Notes under the pieces: generated by a model
Told to the model about the DNA's origin: nothing
Databases searched by the model: none
What the model saw: only the letters and a program-made list of their open reading frames with translations
Position numbers and translations under genes: made by a program
DNA from: an uncultured Bacillota bacterium
GTDB taxonomy: Bacteria > Bacillota_I > Bacilli_A > RF39 > UBA660
DNA: 64,000 nucleotides
Assembly (NCBI GenBank): GCA_948466255.1
Contig: CAOJZV010000006.1
Span: 2,521-66,520 of the forward strand
Direction: 5' to 3'
Shown here: piece after piece, positions 22,003 through 62,535 of the stretch
Layout of the letters: the number at the start of each line of letters is the position of its first letter
How positions within the stretch are numbered: the stretch's first letter is position 1

Positions 22003-23027
22003 CCTAAATTGAAATTTCAACCGCACCAGTAAGGTGTGGTTTTTGATATAATAAAAGAGCCCCACCCGGCAAGGAGGACTCATATATGTATTATACACAA
22101 TTAACAGAAAAAAAGAAAGTAGAAATTGATATATTATTAAAACAAGGATTATCAATGAGAAAAGTAGCTTCGATACTTGGAATAAGCCATTCAACTATAT
22201 CTAGATACAAAGCAGGAGTATATAAAAAGAGAACAATAAATATAAAGGAAAAATATAAAATATTTATAGATTATTTGTATACTCATTATGATAGAAAAAC
22301 ATCATCTATAGAGGTATGTATATTTATGTTTAAAAAAAGATATCGTGGCGTGAAATGTCCATCAGTTAAACAAGTATACAATTGGATAAATGAAGGAAAA
22401 ATAAATATTGATAAAAATTATATGTGTTATAAAAGACGTAAAAATAAAATAAGAAACGGAATGATGTCACACACAAAATGGAATCTTGATAACAAAACAG
22501 TTTTACCAATAAGTTTAAGACCAAAATATATTAATAAGAGGGATGAACCAGGACATTTAGAAATAGATTCGATTTTAGGTAAAAAGAATGAACAGGCATC
22601 AATAATATCTATTGTAGATAGATGTACAAGAAGATTATGGCTTATAAAAGCAGAATACAAAAATGAATATTATATAAACAAATTAATATATGAATACATA
22701 ATAAAAAACGAAATAGAAACAAAATCAATAACGGTAGATAATGGATTAGAATTTCAAGCATTGGGAATAGCGGCAAAAAAATTGGGAGTAAAGTTATATA
22801 AGTGTGATCCATATTGTTCATTTCAAAGAGGAACAAATGAAAGAACCAATGCGTTGGTAAGAAGATTTATACCAAAAGGAGATACTATGAAAACAAAATC
22901 ACAGATATATTTAGATGATATTTGTTTTAATATAAATAGTATGCCTAGAAAAATATTTGACTTTAAATCATCTTTTGAGGTAGAATTAAATTATATTTAA
23001 AGTGGTGCGGTTGAAATTACAAAAAAG
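22003..23027 (+). mobile_element. IS30-family insertion sequence
   Basis: Single DDE transposase ORF. The 22-bp terminal inverted repeats are TTGAAATTTCAACCGCACCAGT (22009-22030) and the reverse complement of 23001-23022, with 2 mismatches. The element is flanked directly by 25-bp direct repeats. Confidence 0.85.
22086..23000 (+). CDS. IS30 family transposase
   Basis: N-terminal HTH (LKQGLSMRKVASILGISHSTISR) and a DDE domain (GHLEIDSILGK..., ITVDNGLEF, FQRGTNERTNALVRRFIPKG). Confidence 0.9.
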   Translation: MYYTQLTEKKKVEIDILLKQGLSMRKVASILGISHSTISRYKAGVYKKRTINIKEKYKIFIDYLYTHYDRKTSSIEVCIFMFKKRYRGVKCPSVKQVYNWINEGKINIDKNYMCYKRRKNKIRNGMMSHTKWNLDNKTVLPISLRPKYINKRDEPGHLEIDSILGKKNEQASIISIVDRCTRRLWLIKAEYKNEYYINKLIYEYIIKNEIETKSITVDNGLEFQALGIAAKKLGVKLYKCDPYCSFQRGTNERTNALVRRFIPKGDTMKTKSQIYLDDICFNINSMPRKIFDFKSSFEVELNYI

Positions 23028-24328: not shown

Positions 24329-24366
24329 TATTTAGAGAAATGTGTTATAATGTAAGTGGTGATATT

Positions 24367-24648
24367 ATGAAAAAATATACTATAAACGAAAAAGAATATG
24401 AATTAATAAAAGATTATCGTGATGGTTTTGATTTATCTGAGGTTACTGATAAATTTACAGATTATTTTGATAATTATGATTATATATTAGGTGACTGGGC
24501 TTATGGAAAACTTAGATTAAAAGGTTTTTGTGATAAGGATAATAGTCTTTTTAAGGATATAAATGATTATTCAACTATTGAGAATTATATTAAGGATAAT
24601 TGTGCTTATAATTGTAAATATTTTATTTTAAAGAAACTTAGTAAATAA
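24367..24648 (+). CDS. yutD: YutD-like protein (DUF1027)
   Basis: YELIKDYRDGFD...DYILGDWAYGKLRLKGF matches the YutD family signature. ATG 24367 is preferred over the track start. Confidence 0.65.
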   Translation: MKKYTINEKEYELIKDYRDGFDLSEVTDKFTDYFDNYDYILGDWAYGKLRLKGFCDKDNSLFKDINDYSTIENYIKDNCAYNCKYFILKKLSK

Positions 24649-24690
24649 GATATTATTGTAATAATTTAATTAATGTGTTATATTATATTT

Positions 24691-24793
24691 AGTGAGGAAA
24701 TTCCTCATAAAAAAGGGAAACATTGTAACATATCAATGTCTGCCTAAATTGTTTTTAGTAAGACACTTTGCTTATGCAAGGTGTCATTTTTTT
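24691..24793 (+). ncRNA. Putative antisense (antitoxin) sRNA, copy 1
   Basis: Promoter TTGTAA (24656-24661), 17 nt, TATATT (24679-24684). Terminator hairpin GACACTTTGC-TTAT-GCAAGGTGTC (24762-24785) followed by ATTTTTTT. It is complementary to the 3' UTR of the minus-strand peptide mRNA. The ends are predicted only. Confidence 0.35.
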
Positions 24794-24794
24794 A

Positions 24795-24878
24795 TTAATT
24801 AAGGCACTTCCAAAGAAGGCCAATCAACAAAATGATAATTACAAGCAATACTAGGATTATAAAATCTTTTTTTGTCAT
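24795..24878 (-). CDS. 27-aa hydrophobic peptide (candidate type I toxin), copy 1
   Basis: Translation: MTKKDFIILVLLVIIILLIGLLWKCLN. An AAGGAGGG SD sits 8 nt upstream and is half-buried in a CCTTTCAG/CTGAAAGG hairpin. Promoter TTGACC-17-TATATT on the minus strand (complement of 24958-24986). Confidence 0.45.
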   Translation of the reverse strand: MTKKDFIILVLLVIIILLIGLLWKCLN

Positions 24879-25195
24879 AATATCAAGCCCTCCTTTCAGG
24901 AACCCCCTGAAACTGAAAGGCAGACACCGATAGCGGTTAAAATGTTTCCGAGTAATTAATATAAACTAGTTATAAACAAAGGTCAAACAACAATTTTGGC
25001 ATTTTTGAAGCATTTTTTCATACAAAAAAACCAAATCTGTTATAGACAAATTTGGCAAATTCATAAGGTTTATTTCTTCAAAAAAGGAAAGTTGGTAGTT
25101 TTATTTATATTATGGAAATTTTATGAAAAGGTGGTTAGGTGGTGGAAAAAAGATAGTAAAAATGTTATAATGGATAAAGATAGGAGGCCTTTAAA

Positions 25196-26285
25196 ATGGA
25201 ATTTAAAGAACTATTAGTAATTTATAGTGATTATAAAAATAGAATAAATGATTTATGGAGGTCTCTTTGACTCTAATTCTAAACAAAAAAGAATGGATGA
25301 ATTAGATAAAATAATGAAGGAAGATAACTTTTGGAATGATAAAAGAAAAAGCGAAACAGTTATTTCTGAATATAATTATTTAAAAAAATTATTAGAAGAA
25401 ACTAGTAATTTGAAAGAAGAAATTGAATTTCATAATGATTCTTTAGGAAATTCTGAGCTTGAAAGTGACGAATCAAATTGGGCTTTAGATGAATATAAAA
25501 ATTTAGGCCAAAGATTAGATGAACTCGAACTTCAAATTTTACTTAGTGGACAGTATGATAAAAATGATGCGGTATTAGAAATACATTCAGGAGCAGGTGG
25601 AACTGAAGCTTGTGACTGGGCAAATATGCTTTATCGTATGTATACAAGATGGTGTGAAAAGAAAGGTTATAAGATAGAAGTTATTGATGAACAGCCTGGA
25701 ACTGAAGTTGGAATTAAAAGTGTTTCTTTAATTGTTAAAGGTCTTAATGCTTTTGGTTATCTTCAAGGTGAAAAGGGAATTCATAGGCTTGTTAGAATTT
25801 CACCGTTTGACAGCAATTCAAGAAGACATACTTCTTTTGCAGCGGTTGAGGTAACACCAGTAATAGATGATGATGCTGATCTTGAAATTGATGAAAAAGA
25901 TATTAGAGTAGATGTTTATCGTAGTTCTGGCGCAGGTGGACAGGGCGTTAATACAACCGATAGTGCAGTTAGGATAACACATTTACCAACAAAAATAATT
26001 GTTACGTGTCAAAATGAACGTAGTCAAATTCAAAATAAAGAAAAGTGTATGCAAATACTTAAAAGTAAATTATTGAAAATAAAAGCAGAAGAAAAGGAAG
26101 CTGAAATGAAAGAATTAAAAGGTGAATTAAAAGAAATTAATTTTGGCTCACAAATTAGAAGTTATGTTATGTGTCCATATACTTTAGTTAAAGATCATCG
26201 AACTAACGCTGAAGATGTTAATGTATCTAAAGTATTGGATGGGGATATAGATTTATTTATAAAAGAATATTTAAAGGAGAAGTAG
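25196..26285 (+). CDS. prfB: Peptide chain release factor 2, requires a programmed +1 frameshift at 25265-25271
   Basis: ORF0 ([24 protein letters not shown]) ends at CTT TGA C (25265-25271), preceded by the SD-like GGAGG (25257-25261). The +1 frame continues [12 protein letters not shown] and carries the SPF and GGQ motifs ([16 protein letters not shown]). Confidence 0.95.
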
Positions 26286-32247: not shown

Positions 32248-32487
32248 TATAAAAAATTTATATATTTACCAACTTTCCCTTTTTGTAGGTTAAAGTTTTA
32301 CAAATTTACCAAATTTGTCTATAACAGATTTGGTTTTTTGGTATGAAAAAGTGTTTCAAAAATGCTAAATTTGTCATTTGACCTTTATTTATAACTAGTT
32401 TATATTATTTTCTCGGAAACATTTGTAACCGCTGTCGGTGTCTACCTTTCATTTTTTCAGGGGGTTTCCTGAAAGGAGGGGTTTGGT

Positions 32488-32571
32488 ATGCTTACAAAAA
32501 AAGATTTTATAATCCTAGTACTGTTAGTTATTATCATTTTACTGATTATCCTTCTTTTAAAGAATGGGTAG
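32488..32571 (+). CDS. 27-aa hydrophobic peptide (candidate type I toxin), copy 2
   Basis: Translation: MLTKKDFIILVLLVIIILLIILLLKNG. The SD AAGGAGG (32473-32479) is partly paired in a CCTTTCA/TGAAAGG hairpin (32445-32451 with 32470-32476). Promoter TTGACC (32378-32383), 17 nt, TATATT (32401-32406). Confidence 0.45.
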   Translation: MLTKKDFIILVLLVIIILLIILLLKNG

Positions 32572-32574
32572 TTA

Positions 32575-32679
32575 ATAAAGAAAGACACCCCGCTTTAAGC
32601 AGAGTGTCTTTCTGGTCAAAAAACTAGGTAGACATTGATATGTTACAATGTTTCCTTTTTTATGAGGAATTCCCCCATT
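32575..32679 (-). ncRNA. Putative antisense (antitoxin) sRNA, copy 2
   Basis: Minus-strand promoter TTGTAA (complement of 32709-32714), 17 nt, TATATT (complement of 32686-32691). The AAAGACAC...GTGTCTTT hairpin (32581-32611) acts as a bidirectional terminator. The ends are predicted only. Confidence 0.35.
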
Positions 32680-32718
32680 AATTAAAATATATCATATTTG
32701 TTAAAATATTACAACATT

Positions 32719-53589: not shown

Positions 53590-53805
53590 TTTTATAAATC
53601 AATGAGGAAGAATAGTAGTATAAATTAATATTAATAGAGAGTTAGTGTTTGGTGGAAACTAACAATATTGTTTATATGAATCTACTTCTGAGTGGAAATT
53701 AATCATTTCCCGGTCTTGGCCGTTATCTTTAATTAAGACTATGAATTAGGATGGTACCGTGATAATTCACTCCTAAAATACATGGTCTTTTTGTTTTATT
53801 TTTGG
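53590..53805 (+). promoter_or_regulatory. T-box riboswitch leader, probable Ser (UCU) specifier
   Basis: Stem I elements are present: AGTAGTA at ~53614, AGAGA at 53636-53640, and a GGTGGAAAC distal loop at 53651. The candidate specifier is GAA-TCT-A at 53678-53684. The T-box sequence AATTAGGATGGTACCGTG spans 53744-53761. A T-rich tract sits at 53788-53803. Confidence 0.75.
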
Positions 53806-60366: not shown

Positions 60367-61317
60367 TTATTTTAGTTCTAAGTAATACTCATTGTTAAAA
60401 TCATGATTAGTAGTATCTAAACTTAATAATTTATTAGTATCTATTAAGAAAAATTTGTGGAGTAGCATATTACTTTTATCACTGGTTACAGGGTCATCCC
60501 AAGTTAAATCTAAATGGAGCCATTTTCCGTTTAAATAAACTAAGTTCCATATGTGATTTATATTTGAAATTTTATAGTTTTTAATTCCCAAATCATCAAG
60601 AATTAATTTCATGGCATCACTATATCCGCTACAAAGGGCTTTACCTTCTAATAAAGGTCCGTTTGCTTTGTGTGAATTATATTTATAATTTGTGTCATCA
60701 CCCTTTTCTATTTGGGCAGCTCTTTCTTCATCATAAACCGAGTGATTAATTATGTAATCATGGAAGGCTTTGATTTTTTCTTCATCAGTCATACTATCCT
60801 TTATTACTTCGCATTTAATTTCTTCTAATTTTGTATTTATATTTTGAATATCTTCAGCGCTATATAATTTATCTAATGTGATAGTTGCTTTTCCATATGT
60901 ATTAGTTGTTACATATAATTTTTGATAGCTATTATATGGTGAGACCATATTATTAATGACTGATAAAAGTATTTGATCTTTTGAAATTTCTTTTAAATCA
61001 TTTAAACAATTATCATAGTCTTTTGAACAATAAAATGAATATGAATCTTTTCCAGAATTTAATATTGTATATATGGCATTTAAGATACCTTGTTTATCTT
61101 TTACGTGAAAATCATTTGTATTTTGAACAAAACTAAAATCAAAGCTTTTGGTATATTTGTTATCGTCTGGTTTATTTACTTTTGTATATTCGGTTACATT
61201 TTCCATAACAAAGGTTACGATTTCAGTCCTATAGAATATACATATAACCAATAGTATCAGAAGCATGATTGTTGATATATGGAATTTATAGTGCTTCATA
61301 TTATCACCTTTTTTCAC
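60367..61317 (-). CDS. Transglutaminase-like cysteine protease domain protein
   Basis: N-terminal signal-anchor, and the C-terminal core GKALCSGYSDAMKLILDDLGI...HIWNLVYLNGKWLHLDLTWDD (Cys-His-Asp). Confidence 0.75.
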   Translation of the reverse strand: MKKGDNMKHYKFHISTIMLLILLVICIFYRTEIVTFVMENVTEYTKVNKPDDNKYTKSFDFSFVQNTNDFHVKDKQGILNAIYTILNSGKDSYSFYCSKDYDNCLNDLKEISKDQILLSVINNMVSPYNSYQKLYVTTNTYGKATITLDKLYSAEDIQNINTKLEEIKCEVIKDSMTDEEKIKAFHDYIINHSVYDEERAAQIEKGDDTNYKYNSHKANGPLLEGKALCSGYSDAMKLILDDLGIKNYKISNINHIWNLVYLNGKWLHLDLTWDDPVTSDKSNMLLHKFFLIDTNKLLSLDTTNHDFNNEYYLELK

Positions 61318-61668
61318 TTTCTTTAATATGATATGTTTTTTTCTAATAAAATTATAACATAGTTTTTGTTCTTATAATATATACTTTTTATAATTTATTG
61401 AAAAGTATTTTACATATATATTTGTTATTAGATATAATGTGATATTTTTTTACAAATATTTAATATATTGTTGATTATTTTGCTTTACAAATTTACCAAA
61501 TTGGTAATTTTTTCTTACTAAAAGGGGAATTTGGTAAATTGTAACAAAAAAGAAGGAAATTGATGTACAAAAATTGTATATTTATTTGAAAGAGTATTTT
61601 TTATTCTTTCAAATGACAAGGGATTTCATATATAAAAGAATAAAGGAGGTATTAGAAGGAGGGAATAG

Positions 61669-62535
61669 ATGGCAAGAATTAAATGTATTGATAAAGATGG
61701 TAACATTTTTTATAAAGCAGGAGCAGATGGAATGTTTAAAACAATATTTGGCGATGAACAAGATAAAGAACTTTTAGAAAAGTTATTAGAAGTAACTTTA
61801 GATGAAAAAGTAAAAGTAGAAAGAATACTTAATCCTGGTATATTAAAAACCAATGTGAGAAGCAAAGATAAAACTTTAGATTTACTTGTAAGAGGTTCAG
61901 ATGATACTTTATATAATATAGAAGTAAACATGTCATATTATAAACATTTAAATAGGAGAAATGCCGCTTTTGTGTTTAGTAAATATTCAGAAGATTTAAA
62001 GGTAAGTGATTCATATACAAATATGAATAAAATAATTCAAATAAATTTAACTAGCGAATTATCTGAAGAAGGTGAATTAATAAATGAATATAAATTAATT
62101 GATGAGAATACTAAAAAAGAATACATTGATAATTTTGTAATATATGAATTTAACTTGGATAAGTTAAAGGAAGTATGTTATAATAAAGATGAATTTGGAA
62201 AGTATAAAATATTAGTTTCACTTATATGTGATGATGTTGAACTGCATGATATATGTAGAGGAGATAAACTCTTAGAGAAACTCGAAAGGAAGGTTATAGA
62301 TATGAATAAAGATCCTGAATTTATAGAATTTATGAGTGAAGAAGAGGAAATGGAAAAGCTTCAAAAAACATTGATGGAAAATGCCAGAGAAGAAGGAACT
62401 CTTCAAGGGATTGAACAAGGTTCAAAAGAAAAACAATTACAAATTGCCAAAAATATGCTTGCAAAAAATATGGATATTGATTTAATATCAGAAGTTACTA
62501 ATTTATCAAAAGAAGAGATTGAAACTTTAAAATAG
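61669..62535 (+). CDS. Rpn family recombination-promoting nuclease / putative transposase (PDDEXK_2)
   Basis: N-terminus DGMFKTIFGDEQDKELLEKLLEVTL and DLLVRGSDDTLYNIEVN (D...E.K core). The C-terminal repeat region is EGIEQGSKEKQLQIAKNMLAKNMDIDLISEVTNLSKEEIE. Confidence 0.7.
   Translation: MARIKCIDKDGNIFYKAGADGMFKTIFGDEQDKELLEKLLEVTLDEKVKVERILNPGILKTNVRSKDKTLDLLVRGSDDTLYNIEVNMSYYKHLNRRNAAFVFSKYSEDLKVSDSYTNMNKIIQINLTSELSEEGELINEYKLIDENTKKEYIDNFVIYEFNLDKLKEVCYNKDEFGKYKILVSLICDDVELHDICRGDKLLEKLERKVIDMNKDPEFIEFMSEEEEMEKLQKTLMENAREEGTLQGIEQGSKEKQLQIAKNMLAKNMDIDLISEVTNLSKEEIETLK

Follow-up and report, generated by a model that had tools for sequence, protein, structure and literature searches.

Does a small locus with two convergent promoters, a 27-codon open reading frame (ORF) and a set of hairpins encode a type I toxin–antitoxin pair? 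The question is raised by positions 32378–32714 of a 64-kb stretch of DNA (the window) from an uncultured Bacillota bacterium (assembly GCA_948466255.1, contig CAOJZV010000006.1). A first-pass annotation, made from the letters alone, had read this locus as the second copy (copy 2) of such a module, of an unrecognised family. We put the probability at about 0.7 that the module is a toxin–antitoxin pair of a previously undescribed family, with 3′-overlapping transcripts and with a predicted closing helix of the toxin messenger RNA (mRNA) that is encoded by an inverted repeat. That both genes, one for the peptide and one for the antisense RNA, are real is very probable. Those predictions of the type I layout that can be tested on sequence, a conserved ORF and a convergent antisense gene, held; the most distinctive feature of the module, the pairing of the two mRNA ends, was absent from the annotation. 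The promoters, leader, hairpins, ORF and terminator that it had listed were all found in place. The elements of copy 2, including the Shine–Dalgarno (SD) sequence, are as follows.

32308–32340, plus strand: upstream hairpin ACCAAATTTGTCTATAACAGATTTGGT followed by a T-run (terminator scan), kept in copy 1 and in locus L080
32378–32406, plus strand: predicted promoter of the peptide mRNA, TTGACC-17-TATATT, with a predicted start at ~32413; the same hexamers occur in copy 1
~73–75 nt between this promoter and the ORF, plus strand: leader, read from the sequence
32415–32447, plus strand: boxes A (GGAAACATTTGTAAC) and B (GTCGGTGTCTACCT) of the 5′ end, one side of the predicted long-distance pairing and a paralog of antisense hairpin 2
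32445–32479, plus strand: local hairpin CCTTTCA (32445–32451)/TGAAAGG (32470–32476), from sequence and fold
32473–32479, plus strand: SD sequence AAGGAGG, overlapped by the CCTTTCA/TGAAAGG hairpin
32488–32571, plus strand: 27-codon ORF MLTKKDFIILVLLVIIILLIILLLKNG, the putative toxin, with a single transmembrane helix and a KKD N-terminus
32570–32611, minus strand: predicted terminator of the antisense RNA, composed of hairpin 3 (32581–32611) and a T-rich tail that overlaps the stop codon
32626–32661, plus strand: 3′ boxes B′ (AGGTAGACATTGAT) and A′ (GTTACAATGTTTCC) followed by T6, the mRNA terminator region and 3′ pairing partner
32632–32661, plus strand: local terminator, ACATTG/CAATGT followed by TTCCTTTTTT
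32663–32677, minus strand: antisense hairpin 1, 5′-terminal, UGGGGGAAUUCCUCA, with two G·U pairs, which are possible on the minus strand alone
32686–32714, minus strand: predicted antisense promoter TTGTAA-17-TATATT with a TG-extended −10 box and a predicted start at ~32679

Promoter hexamers alone are not beyond chance, since in this DNA of 28% G+C seven promoter-like hexamers were seen versus 4.4 ± 2.2 in shuffled sequences. The observation is lifted above chance because the elements are kept between copy 2 and a second module of the window (copy 1), the folding z-scores are strong and the layout recurs in dozens of genomes. Most of 54 family members have promoter-like sites at the position equivalent to the mRNA promoter; the conserved module starts upstream of it, at ~32267. 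From this sigma-A-type promoter an mRNA of ~250 nt would be made. The predicted mRNA (32413–32662) folds with −83.5 kcal/mol and z = −8.1 against dinucleotide shuffles, and that of copy 1 with z = −7.9. The antisense RNA would run from ~32679 to ~32570, roughly 105–110 nt; as folded (32680–32570) it forms three hairpins, with z = −6.05 against dinucleotide shuffles. The two predicted transcripts overlap by ~90 nt (32570–32661), a convergent 3′ layout that is common across the family, and the antisense RNA is fully complementary to the 3′ untranslated region (UTR) of the mRNA, from the T-run as far as the stop codon. The hairpin at 32581–32611, which the first-pass annotation took to be shared by the two transcripts, is indeed present, but is a terminator for the antisense strand only, the T-run being on that side. 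The upstream hairpin at 32308–32340 may block read-through into the module; as a family trait an upstream terminator has no strand enrichment (13 on the toxin strand versus 12 on the other strand, of 57).

The peptide ORF and its family

Species-representative genomes were scanned for a degenerate pattern consisting of GGAG, a gap of 8–35 nt, KK[DE]F and then nine NTN codons. At least 113 loci matched. At least ~65 of the matches are ORFs of 18–34 codons that belong to one family, the remainder being signal peptides that belong to ordinary proteins. In the consensus peptide, M-x-KKDF precedes a stretch of 15–20 I/L/V/F residues. A nucleotide profile built on 51 modules detected 84 modules, distributed over 67 loci; at least 13 loci hold two to three modules in tandem, spaced 330–430 bp apart. 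Hosts among the matches listed are nearly all metagenome-assembled genomes (MAGs) from the gut that are labelled uncultured Bacilli, Tenericutes or Erysipelotrichaceae, plus Candidatus Onthousia; the family-positive MAGs come from rabbit, goat, mouse, chicken, rumen and human sources, and at least one host (locus L017) has a 1.5-Mb chromosome.

An early degenerate pattern (SD, ATG and KKDF) gave only false positives, in viral contigs, and the stricter pattern TKKDFIILV gave zero matches. A tblastn search of the peptide against plasmids and phages found no match, a result made uninformative by the low-complexity filter. An exact look-up of the neighbouring LemA protein returned only metagenome contigs identical to the window.

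Five loci (L025, L026, L033, L047 and L086) are assigned to Muribaculaceae MAGs, yet have the 23–30% G+C of the other family loci, and L025 also carries an L10 leader (RF00557); these contigs probably reflect a binning error, not transfer to Bacteroidota. Head-to-tail arrays of three complete modules are found in L020 (6667–7597), L084 (6703–7688) and L110 (2367–3481). The outer two modules of the L020 array encode MAGKDFIIFILTIIVLLLVILLFRTI and the middle one MSKKDFLIFILLIIIIFLIYTLNRLI; thus, paralogs within one array have diverged. A subfamily with peptides of 22 residues comprises L022, L025, L027, L033, L051, L101 and L115, and has a conserved GGGGGTTTTGG motif directly past the stop codon.

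Is the ORF coding? A strict test was used, which required an SD sequence, a start codon, [KR][KR][DE], at least 60% hydrophobic residues and a length of 15–45 codons. Loss of the ORF with retention of the RNA, the pattern that the first-pass annotation had set against its own reading, is not what the homologs display: the ORF is kept in at least 69 of the 78 profile-detected modules that cover the ORF region, and several modules that did not pass nonetheless have an intact variant. Outside the search pattern, no fewer than 12 peptides found only via nucleotide similarity are intact (e.g. MAGKDFIIFILTIIVLLLVILLFRTI and MTKREFSQFIIILLLFLVVIILLLK). Between the two window copies, codons 3–20 differ by six synonymous and no non-synonymous changes, the last seven codons being free to change. 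In at least 90% of sequences the codon two positions upstream of KK is ATG or GTG, and for four codons past the search pattern the second codon position is T in at least 90% of sequences. The comparison indicates that the ORF is conserved as a coding sequence. In an alignment of 36 peptides the product is nearly pure I/L/V/F with a free C-terminus, and is likely to be a single-helix membrane peptide and a putative toxin.

Pairing of the mRNA ends and the predicted antisense RNA

The minimum-free-energy folds of both window copies join the first ~33 nt of the mRNA to both arms of the 3′ terminator region: 5′ box A (GGAAACAUUUGUAAC) pairs with 3′ box A′ (GUUACAAUGUUUCC), within 2–4 nt of the predicted start, and 5′ box B (GUCGGUGUCUACCU) pairs with 3′ box B′ (AGGUAGACAUUGAU). 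A compensatory change distinguishes the two copies (GUCUACC/GGUAGAC versus GUCUGCC/GGCAGAC), and the same helix is present in the minimum-free-energy folds of the distant loci L029 (z = −7.0) and L017 (z = −7.6). In the DNA, both ends of the module are marked by an inverted repeat, which takes in both −10 boxes and the first ~35 transcribed bases, and therefore the antisense RNA begins with a paralog of the mRNA start; on the minus strand the 3′ boxes B′/A′ constitute hairpin 2 of the antisense RNA.

Across 51 members the duplex energy of a member's own 5′ and 3′ segments has a mean of −35.7 kcal/mol, versus −23.3 for swapped partners and −21.4 for partners whose 5′ segments are dissimilar, and for 49 members the cognate partner is one of the nine best of 51. 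Because the subfamilies are out of register in the full MAFFT alignment of 51 sequences, RNAalifold returned fragments only, and targeted alignments and per-sequence tests were used instead. A dedicated 32-member alignment has 85.9% of the 5′–3′ helix positions paired, versus 78.4% after shuffling and 38–50% when slid; compensatory changes occur in 18 of 22 pairs, a number that none of 500 shuffles reached. When the 5′ boxes are compared with the reverse complement of the 3′ boxes, transitions yield 93 G·U versus 17 A·C appositions in the mRNA (binomial p = 7 × 10−14). Homogenisation of an inverted repeat at the DNA level would not give such a G·U bias, which thus argues for pairing at the RNA level. 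By this covariation the closing helix of the mRNA is shown to be conserved, and its 3′ half is the predicted target of the antisense RNA.

The antisense strand was examined in the same manner in an alignment of 48 sequences that covers hairpin 2 (the complement of B′/A′) and hairpin 3 (the terminator). In these two hairpins 89.1% of cells are paired, versus 74.6% after shuffling and 34–42% when slid, and compensatory changes occur in 17 of 18 pairs (reached in none of 500 shuffles), including all nine pairs of hairpin 3. The excess of G·U pairs over A·C mismatches in both hairpins (hairpin 2, 56:30; hairpin 3, 22:7) favours the antisense strand. So does folding energy: the 3′ hairpin region is stabler on that strand in 43 of 51 members (−10.9 versus −6.7 kcal/mol; Wilcoxon p = 4 × 10−8). 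Hairpin 1, also stabler on the antisense strand, is present in all 31 members that carry its region, in the form of 17 different stem sequences. The T-rich tail after hairpin 3 is found on the antisense strand only, and a TG-extended antisense −10 box, conserved in the alignment, is present in 38 of 54 members. All this strongly implies a structured antisense RNA of ~105–120 nt with three hairpins. The proposal of the first-pass annotation, an antisense RNA of ~100 nt that overlaps the 3′ end of the mRNA, is in good agreement with the extended −10 box, the covarying hairpins, the strand asymmetry and the separate terminator.

Since hairpin 2 is paralogous to the mRNA 5′ end, the latter would have the antisense RNA as a competitor for the same 3′ element. 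Complementarity of the antisense RNA to the translation-initiation region does not co-evolve (cognate −20.7 versus swapped −19.4 kcal/mol; the median rank of the cognate partner is 16 of 48), and a mode of action like that of par or SprA1 is therefore unlikely.

Copy 1 and the gene neighbourhoods

Both promoters, the ORF and both terminators of copy 2 are conserved in copy 1; a profile search found no third module in the 64-kb window. The elements of copy 1 are as follows.

24656–25097, minus strand: whole module, 82% identical to copy 2 over 455 bp
24795–24878, minus strand: ORF MTKKDFIILVLLVIIILLIGLLWKCLN
24986–24958, minus strand: predicted mRNA promoter
24656–24684, plus strand: predicted antisense promoter
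24762–24785, plus strand: hairpin of the predicted antisense terminator, GACAC...GTGTC, followed by T7 (terminator scan)
25056–25030, minus strand: upstream hairpin

Copy 1 has yunB and a yutD-like gene on one side and prfB on the other, and is divergent from prfB. Copy 2 is flanked by divIC and, on its opposite side, by lemA and gerQ; it is convergent with lemA. Locus L045 is the syntenic ortholog of copy 1 in another species (flanking proteins 77–90% identical), and thus copy 1 has descended vertically, in a setting of core genes. The YutD-like gene (24340–24648; Pfam PF06265, described as ‘putative antitoxin’) has copy 1 directly on its 3′ side; the antisense promoter begins 8 nt past the stop codon of this gene, so that read-through from it could reinforce antisense transcription.

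The ~110 bp upstream of the toxin promoter (32267–32377 in copy 2; 24987–25097 in copy 1) form near-identical blocks between the window copies, which are more alike there than at the 3′ end of the ORF or in hairpin 3; this region, which also holds a second small palindrome (TGAAAAAGTGTTTCA), is not common to the syntenic ortholog L045. The mosaic similarity of the window copies suggests gene conversion between paralogs. Elsewhere in the window, at 61484–61544, a perfect 17-bp inverted repeat (TTACAAATTTACCAAATT ... AATTTGGTAAATTGTAA) with a 26-nt loop sits between two divergent ORFs, 60367–61317 (minus strand) and 61669–62535 (plus strand). Its left arm has an 18–19-nt string in common with the region upstream of copy 2 (32297–32318); the repeat could be a common operator or terminator-like element.

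An ORF at 22086–23000 has an N-terminal HTH_38 domain and lacks a match in the otherwise syntenic locus L045. From its translated sequence we read it as an IS30-type transposase, though without a hit to a transposase domain, and it may be a recent insertion. The prfB gene (release factor 2; 25164–26285) is split over two frames, 24996–25217 and 25248–26285, which is the expected layout of a programmed +1 frameshift. The window also carries a class B RNase P RNA (2362–2706) and a T-box leader (53593–53777); together with the sporulation genes yabG, yabP/yabQ (by synteny), yunB and gerQ they place the organism in Bacillota.

Known systems, alternatives and significance

Is the family a known one? 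T1TAdb holds 24 families of type I systems (PMC8594479). As the first-pass annotation had surmised, the peptide is unlike known toxins: none of 36 peptides had a match in Pfam, in the NCBIfam toxin families or among PDB chains. At the gathering threshold Rfam gave no match to the modules, neither to those of the window nor to those of 18 other loci. Two sub-threshold candidates were set aside: RF02637, the par-like locus EF0408–EF0409 of Enterococcus faecalis (20 bits, E = 0.004), which reflects mainly a similar terminator stem, and Pfam DUF6366 (12 bits versus a cut-off of 27), which was judged to be noise. Ten peptides that were looked up had no counterpart among ~15 billion predicted proteins. 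A literature search found no paper with the peptide strings, and none that pairs type I toxin–antitoxin systems with Erysipelotrichaceae.

The systems bsrG/SR4, bsrE/SR5 and txpA/RatA of Bacillus subtilis resemble the family in that each has the mRNA of a hydrophobic peptide and a convergent antisense RNA of ~100–200 nt, with overlapping 3′ ends and an own promoter for each RNA. In bsrG/SR4 and txpA/RatA, duplex formation is followed by RNase III-dependent decay. The layout of these 3′-overlapping systems is summarised in T1TAdb, according to which the antisense RNAs of TxpA and BsrE/G/H overlap the ORF (PMC8594479); in the family described here, by contrast, the overlap is essentially confined to the 3′ UTR and reaches just the stop codon. 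Further differences are that the target of the predicted antisense RNA also partners the mRNA's own 5′ end, that the modules are not on prophage-like elements, and that neither peptide nor RNA has sequence or profile similarity to the B. subtilis systems.

The par system (Fst/RNA II of E. faecalis pAD1 and its chromosomal homologs) has convergent promoters as well, and its peptide likewise combines a charged K/D N-terminus with a transmembrane helix. The 5′ end of RNA I is held in an intramolecular helix (5′-UH) that confers stability, and RNA I has an SD hairpin in addition (PMC7472228); the analog of this sequestered 5′ end would be the A/A′ pairing. However, in par direct repeats make RNA II complementary to the 5′ translation-initiation region and one bidirectional terminator serves both RNAs, whereas here the repeats are inverted, the 5′ ends of the two RNAs are thus similar and not complementary, and there are two separate terminators. 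The Fst/Ldr signature is a PXXXG(C) motif in the helix, a conserved W and a highly charged C-terminal tail (PMC7472228). The present peptides have no P or G motif and no charged tail, and a W only in the subfamily of the window, before the C-terminus.

Pairing of 5′ and 3′ ends in a full-length toxin mRNA is known from hok/Sok and aapA1/IsoA1. The primary toxin transcript of aapA1 is locked by such long-distance pairing. The same is stated for the hok primary transcript by Franch et al. 1997, as cited in PMC8594479. In both, the mRNA is bound by the antisense RNA in its 5′ region and becomes active upon 3′ trimming, whereas here the predicted antisense RNA binds the 3′ partner of the fold-back; homology is lacking and the host phyla are different. 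Ibs/Sib and ShoB/OhsC of Escherichia coli have comparable peptides (18–26 residues, almost purely hydrophobic, without a charged tail, encoded in multiple copies on the chromosome), but are proteobacterial and without sequence similarity, and Sib overlaps the entire ibs ORF (PMC8594479). SprA1/SprA1AS of Staphylococcus aureus shares an overlap confined to the 3′ UTR, but SprA1AS acts via a non-overlapping 5′ domain on the translation-initiation region (PMC8594479), a complementarity that does not co-evolve here. In its working the module would come closest to the 3′-overlapping systems of B. subtilis; a sequestered 5′ end links it to par, and the fold-back to hok and aapA1. Since the tests of homology and of repeat architecture fail, the family is set apart from par, from hok/aapA1 and from TxpA/Bsr.

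A number of observations weigh against the toxin–antitoxin reading or temper the evidence for it. Every host among the matches listed is an uncultured MAG. The modules are located among core genes (yutD-like/prfB; divIC/lemA) and none was found in the viral contigs of IMG/VR, where nine matches to the general pattern were unrelated by profile; hence, these are not obviously addiction modules. Codons 3–15 are imposed by the search pattern, which makes peptide conservation there partly circular, and the shuffle statistics are inflated because the sequences are related, so that more reliance is due to the slid controls and the G·U bias, which are free of this effect. The L022-type subfamily lacks both the antisense 5′ hairpin 1 and the T-run after A′, and without this T-run the 3′ end of its mRNA must form differently. 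The half-buried SD of the first-pass annotation is a property of the window copies (unpaired probability 0.04–0.19), but family-wide the burial is not above that of a control with shuffled 5′UTR (mean unpaired probability 0.26 versus 0.25), and removal of the 3′ boxes in silico caused no significant change in SD pairing.

Could the peptide be harmless? A core-genome, syntenic location, the absence of a link to viral contigs and strong purifying selection on the N-terminus and the helix would all suit a non-toxic small membrane protein (like MgrB, KdpF or the SpoVM type) that is tuned by a cis-antisense RNA. We regard this as rather improbable, given that many paralogs per genome and tandem arrays of two to three near-identical modules are typical of type I toxins, that no conserved partner gene adjoins the modules (the window copies have unrelated neighbours), that the peptide is near-pure I/L/V/F with a free C-terminus, and that a closed mRNA with a dedicated antisense RNA suggests a dangerous product. 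A short, very hydrophobic, multi-copy peptide with a cationic N-terminus might also be secreted or surface-active (bacteriocin-like, cytolytic or signalling) under antisense control; its lack of a leader or cleavage motif, a hydrophobic stretch as long as a transmembrane helix, and the absence of transporter, immunity or modification genes next to either window copy make this very unlikely.

Other explanations would dispense with the function of the peptide or assign the module to a neighbour. The inverted repeat of ~35–60 bp that flanks the module, with both promoters inside, its repetition within genomes and its position between convergent or divergent genes bring to mind a non-coding repeat, such as an element resembling a miniature inverted-repeat transposable element (MITE) or a bidirectional terminator cassette, in which the ORF would be incidental. 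This is hardly tenable: ORF, start codon and SD are kept, with synonymous change, in at least 69 of 78 modules, the G·U bias reflects RNA-level selection on a defined strand, no target-site duplications or transposase link were seen, and copy 1 is syntenic across species. Superficially, the structured 5′ region, the short ORF and the terminator also look like a leader peptide, as would be found in a cis-regulatory leader or attenuator of a neighbouring gene. Gene order largely refutes this idea and leaves it a negligible probability, as the copies differ in neighbours and orientations (convergent with lemA; divergent from prfB) and the modules of a tandem array succeed one another; nor was there a match to any leader or riboswitch of Rfam.

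How might the toxin–antitoxin module operate? The sigma-A-type promoter would drive the ~250-nt mRNA for the 27-residue membrane peptide, and the finished mRNA would close on itself via its 5′–3′ pairing. RNase J1 of Firmicutes is sensitive to 5′ structure. Since this is so, and since the 5′-UH stabilises par RNA I, the closed form should stabilise the toxin message: it may guard both ends from RNase J1 and 3′ exonucleases and leave a message that is long-lived and little translated. On the model of txpA/RatA and bsrG/SR4, the antisense RNA would start with loop–loop contacts with the mRNA and proceed to an extended duplex, upon which the closed mRNA would open, RNase III would cleave and the toxin message would decay. 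If the antisense RNA fell, the peptide would be made, insert into the membrane and slow or kill the cell.

A more specific and tentative idea, which we consider possible but doubtful, is that the antitoxin RNA is a paralog, or molecular mimic, of the toxin mRNA 5′ end, with a three-way competition for one 3′ element: the 5′ end would close the dormant ring, the local hairpin would terminate transcription, and the antitoxin would displace the 5′ end and commit the message to decay. If true, the direct-repeat design of par would have its mirror image here, and type I systems a new regulatory logic.

The family is sizeable and unannotated, and its peptides are too short for gene callers. New families are to be expected in the type I toxin–antitoxin class; the RNA design found here is unusual and well supported. 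It would combine a closed toxin mRNA in the style of hok and aapA1 with a 3′-overlapping antitoxin in the style of B. subtilis that targets the closing helix, and its natural covariation across at least three sequence-divergent subfamilies would provide ready-made orthogonal pairs for specificity tests or RNA devices. The family may be specific to uncultured gut Bacilli, for which, to our knowledge, no type I system has been described. It would add a large set of multi-copy modules to gut lineages that are known only from MAGs.

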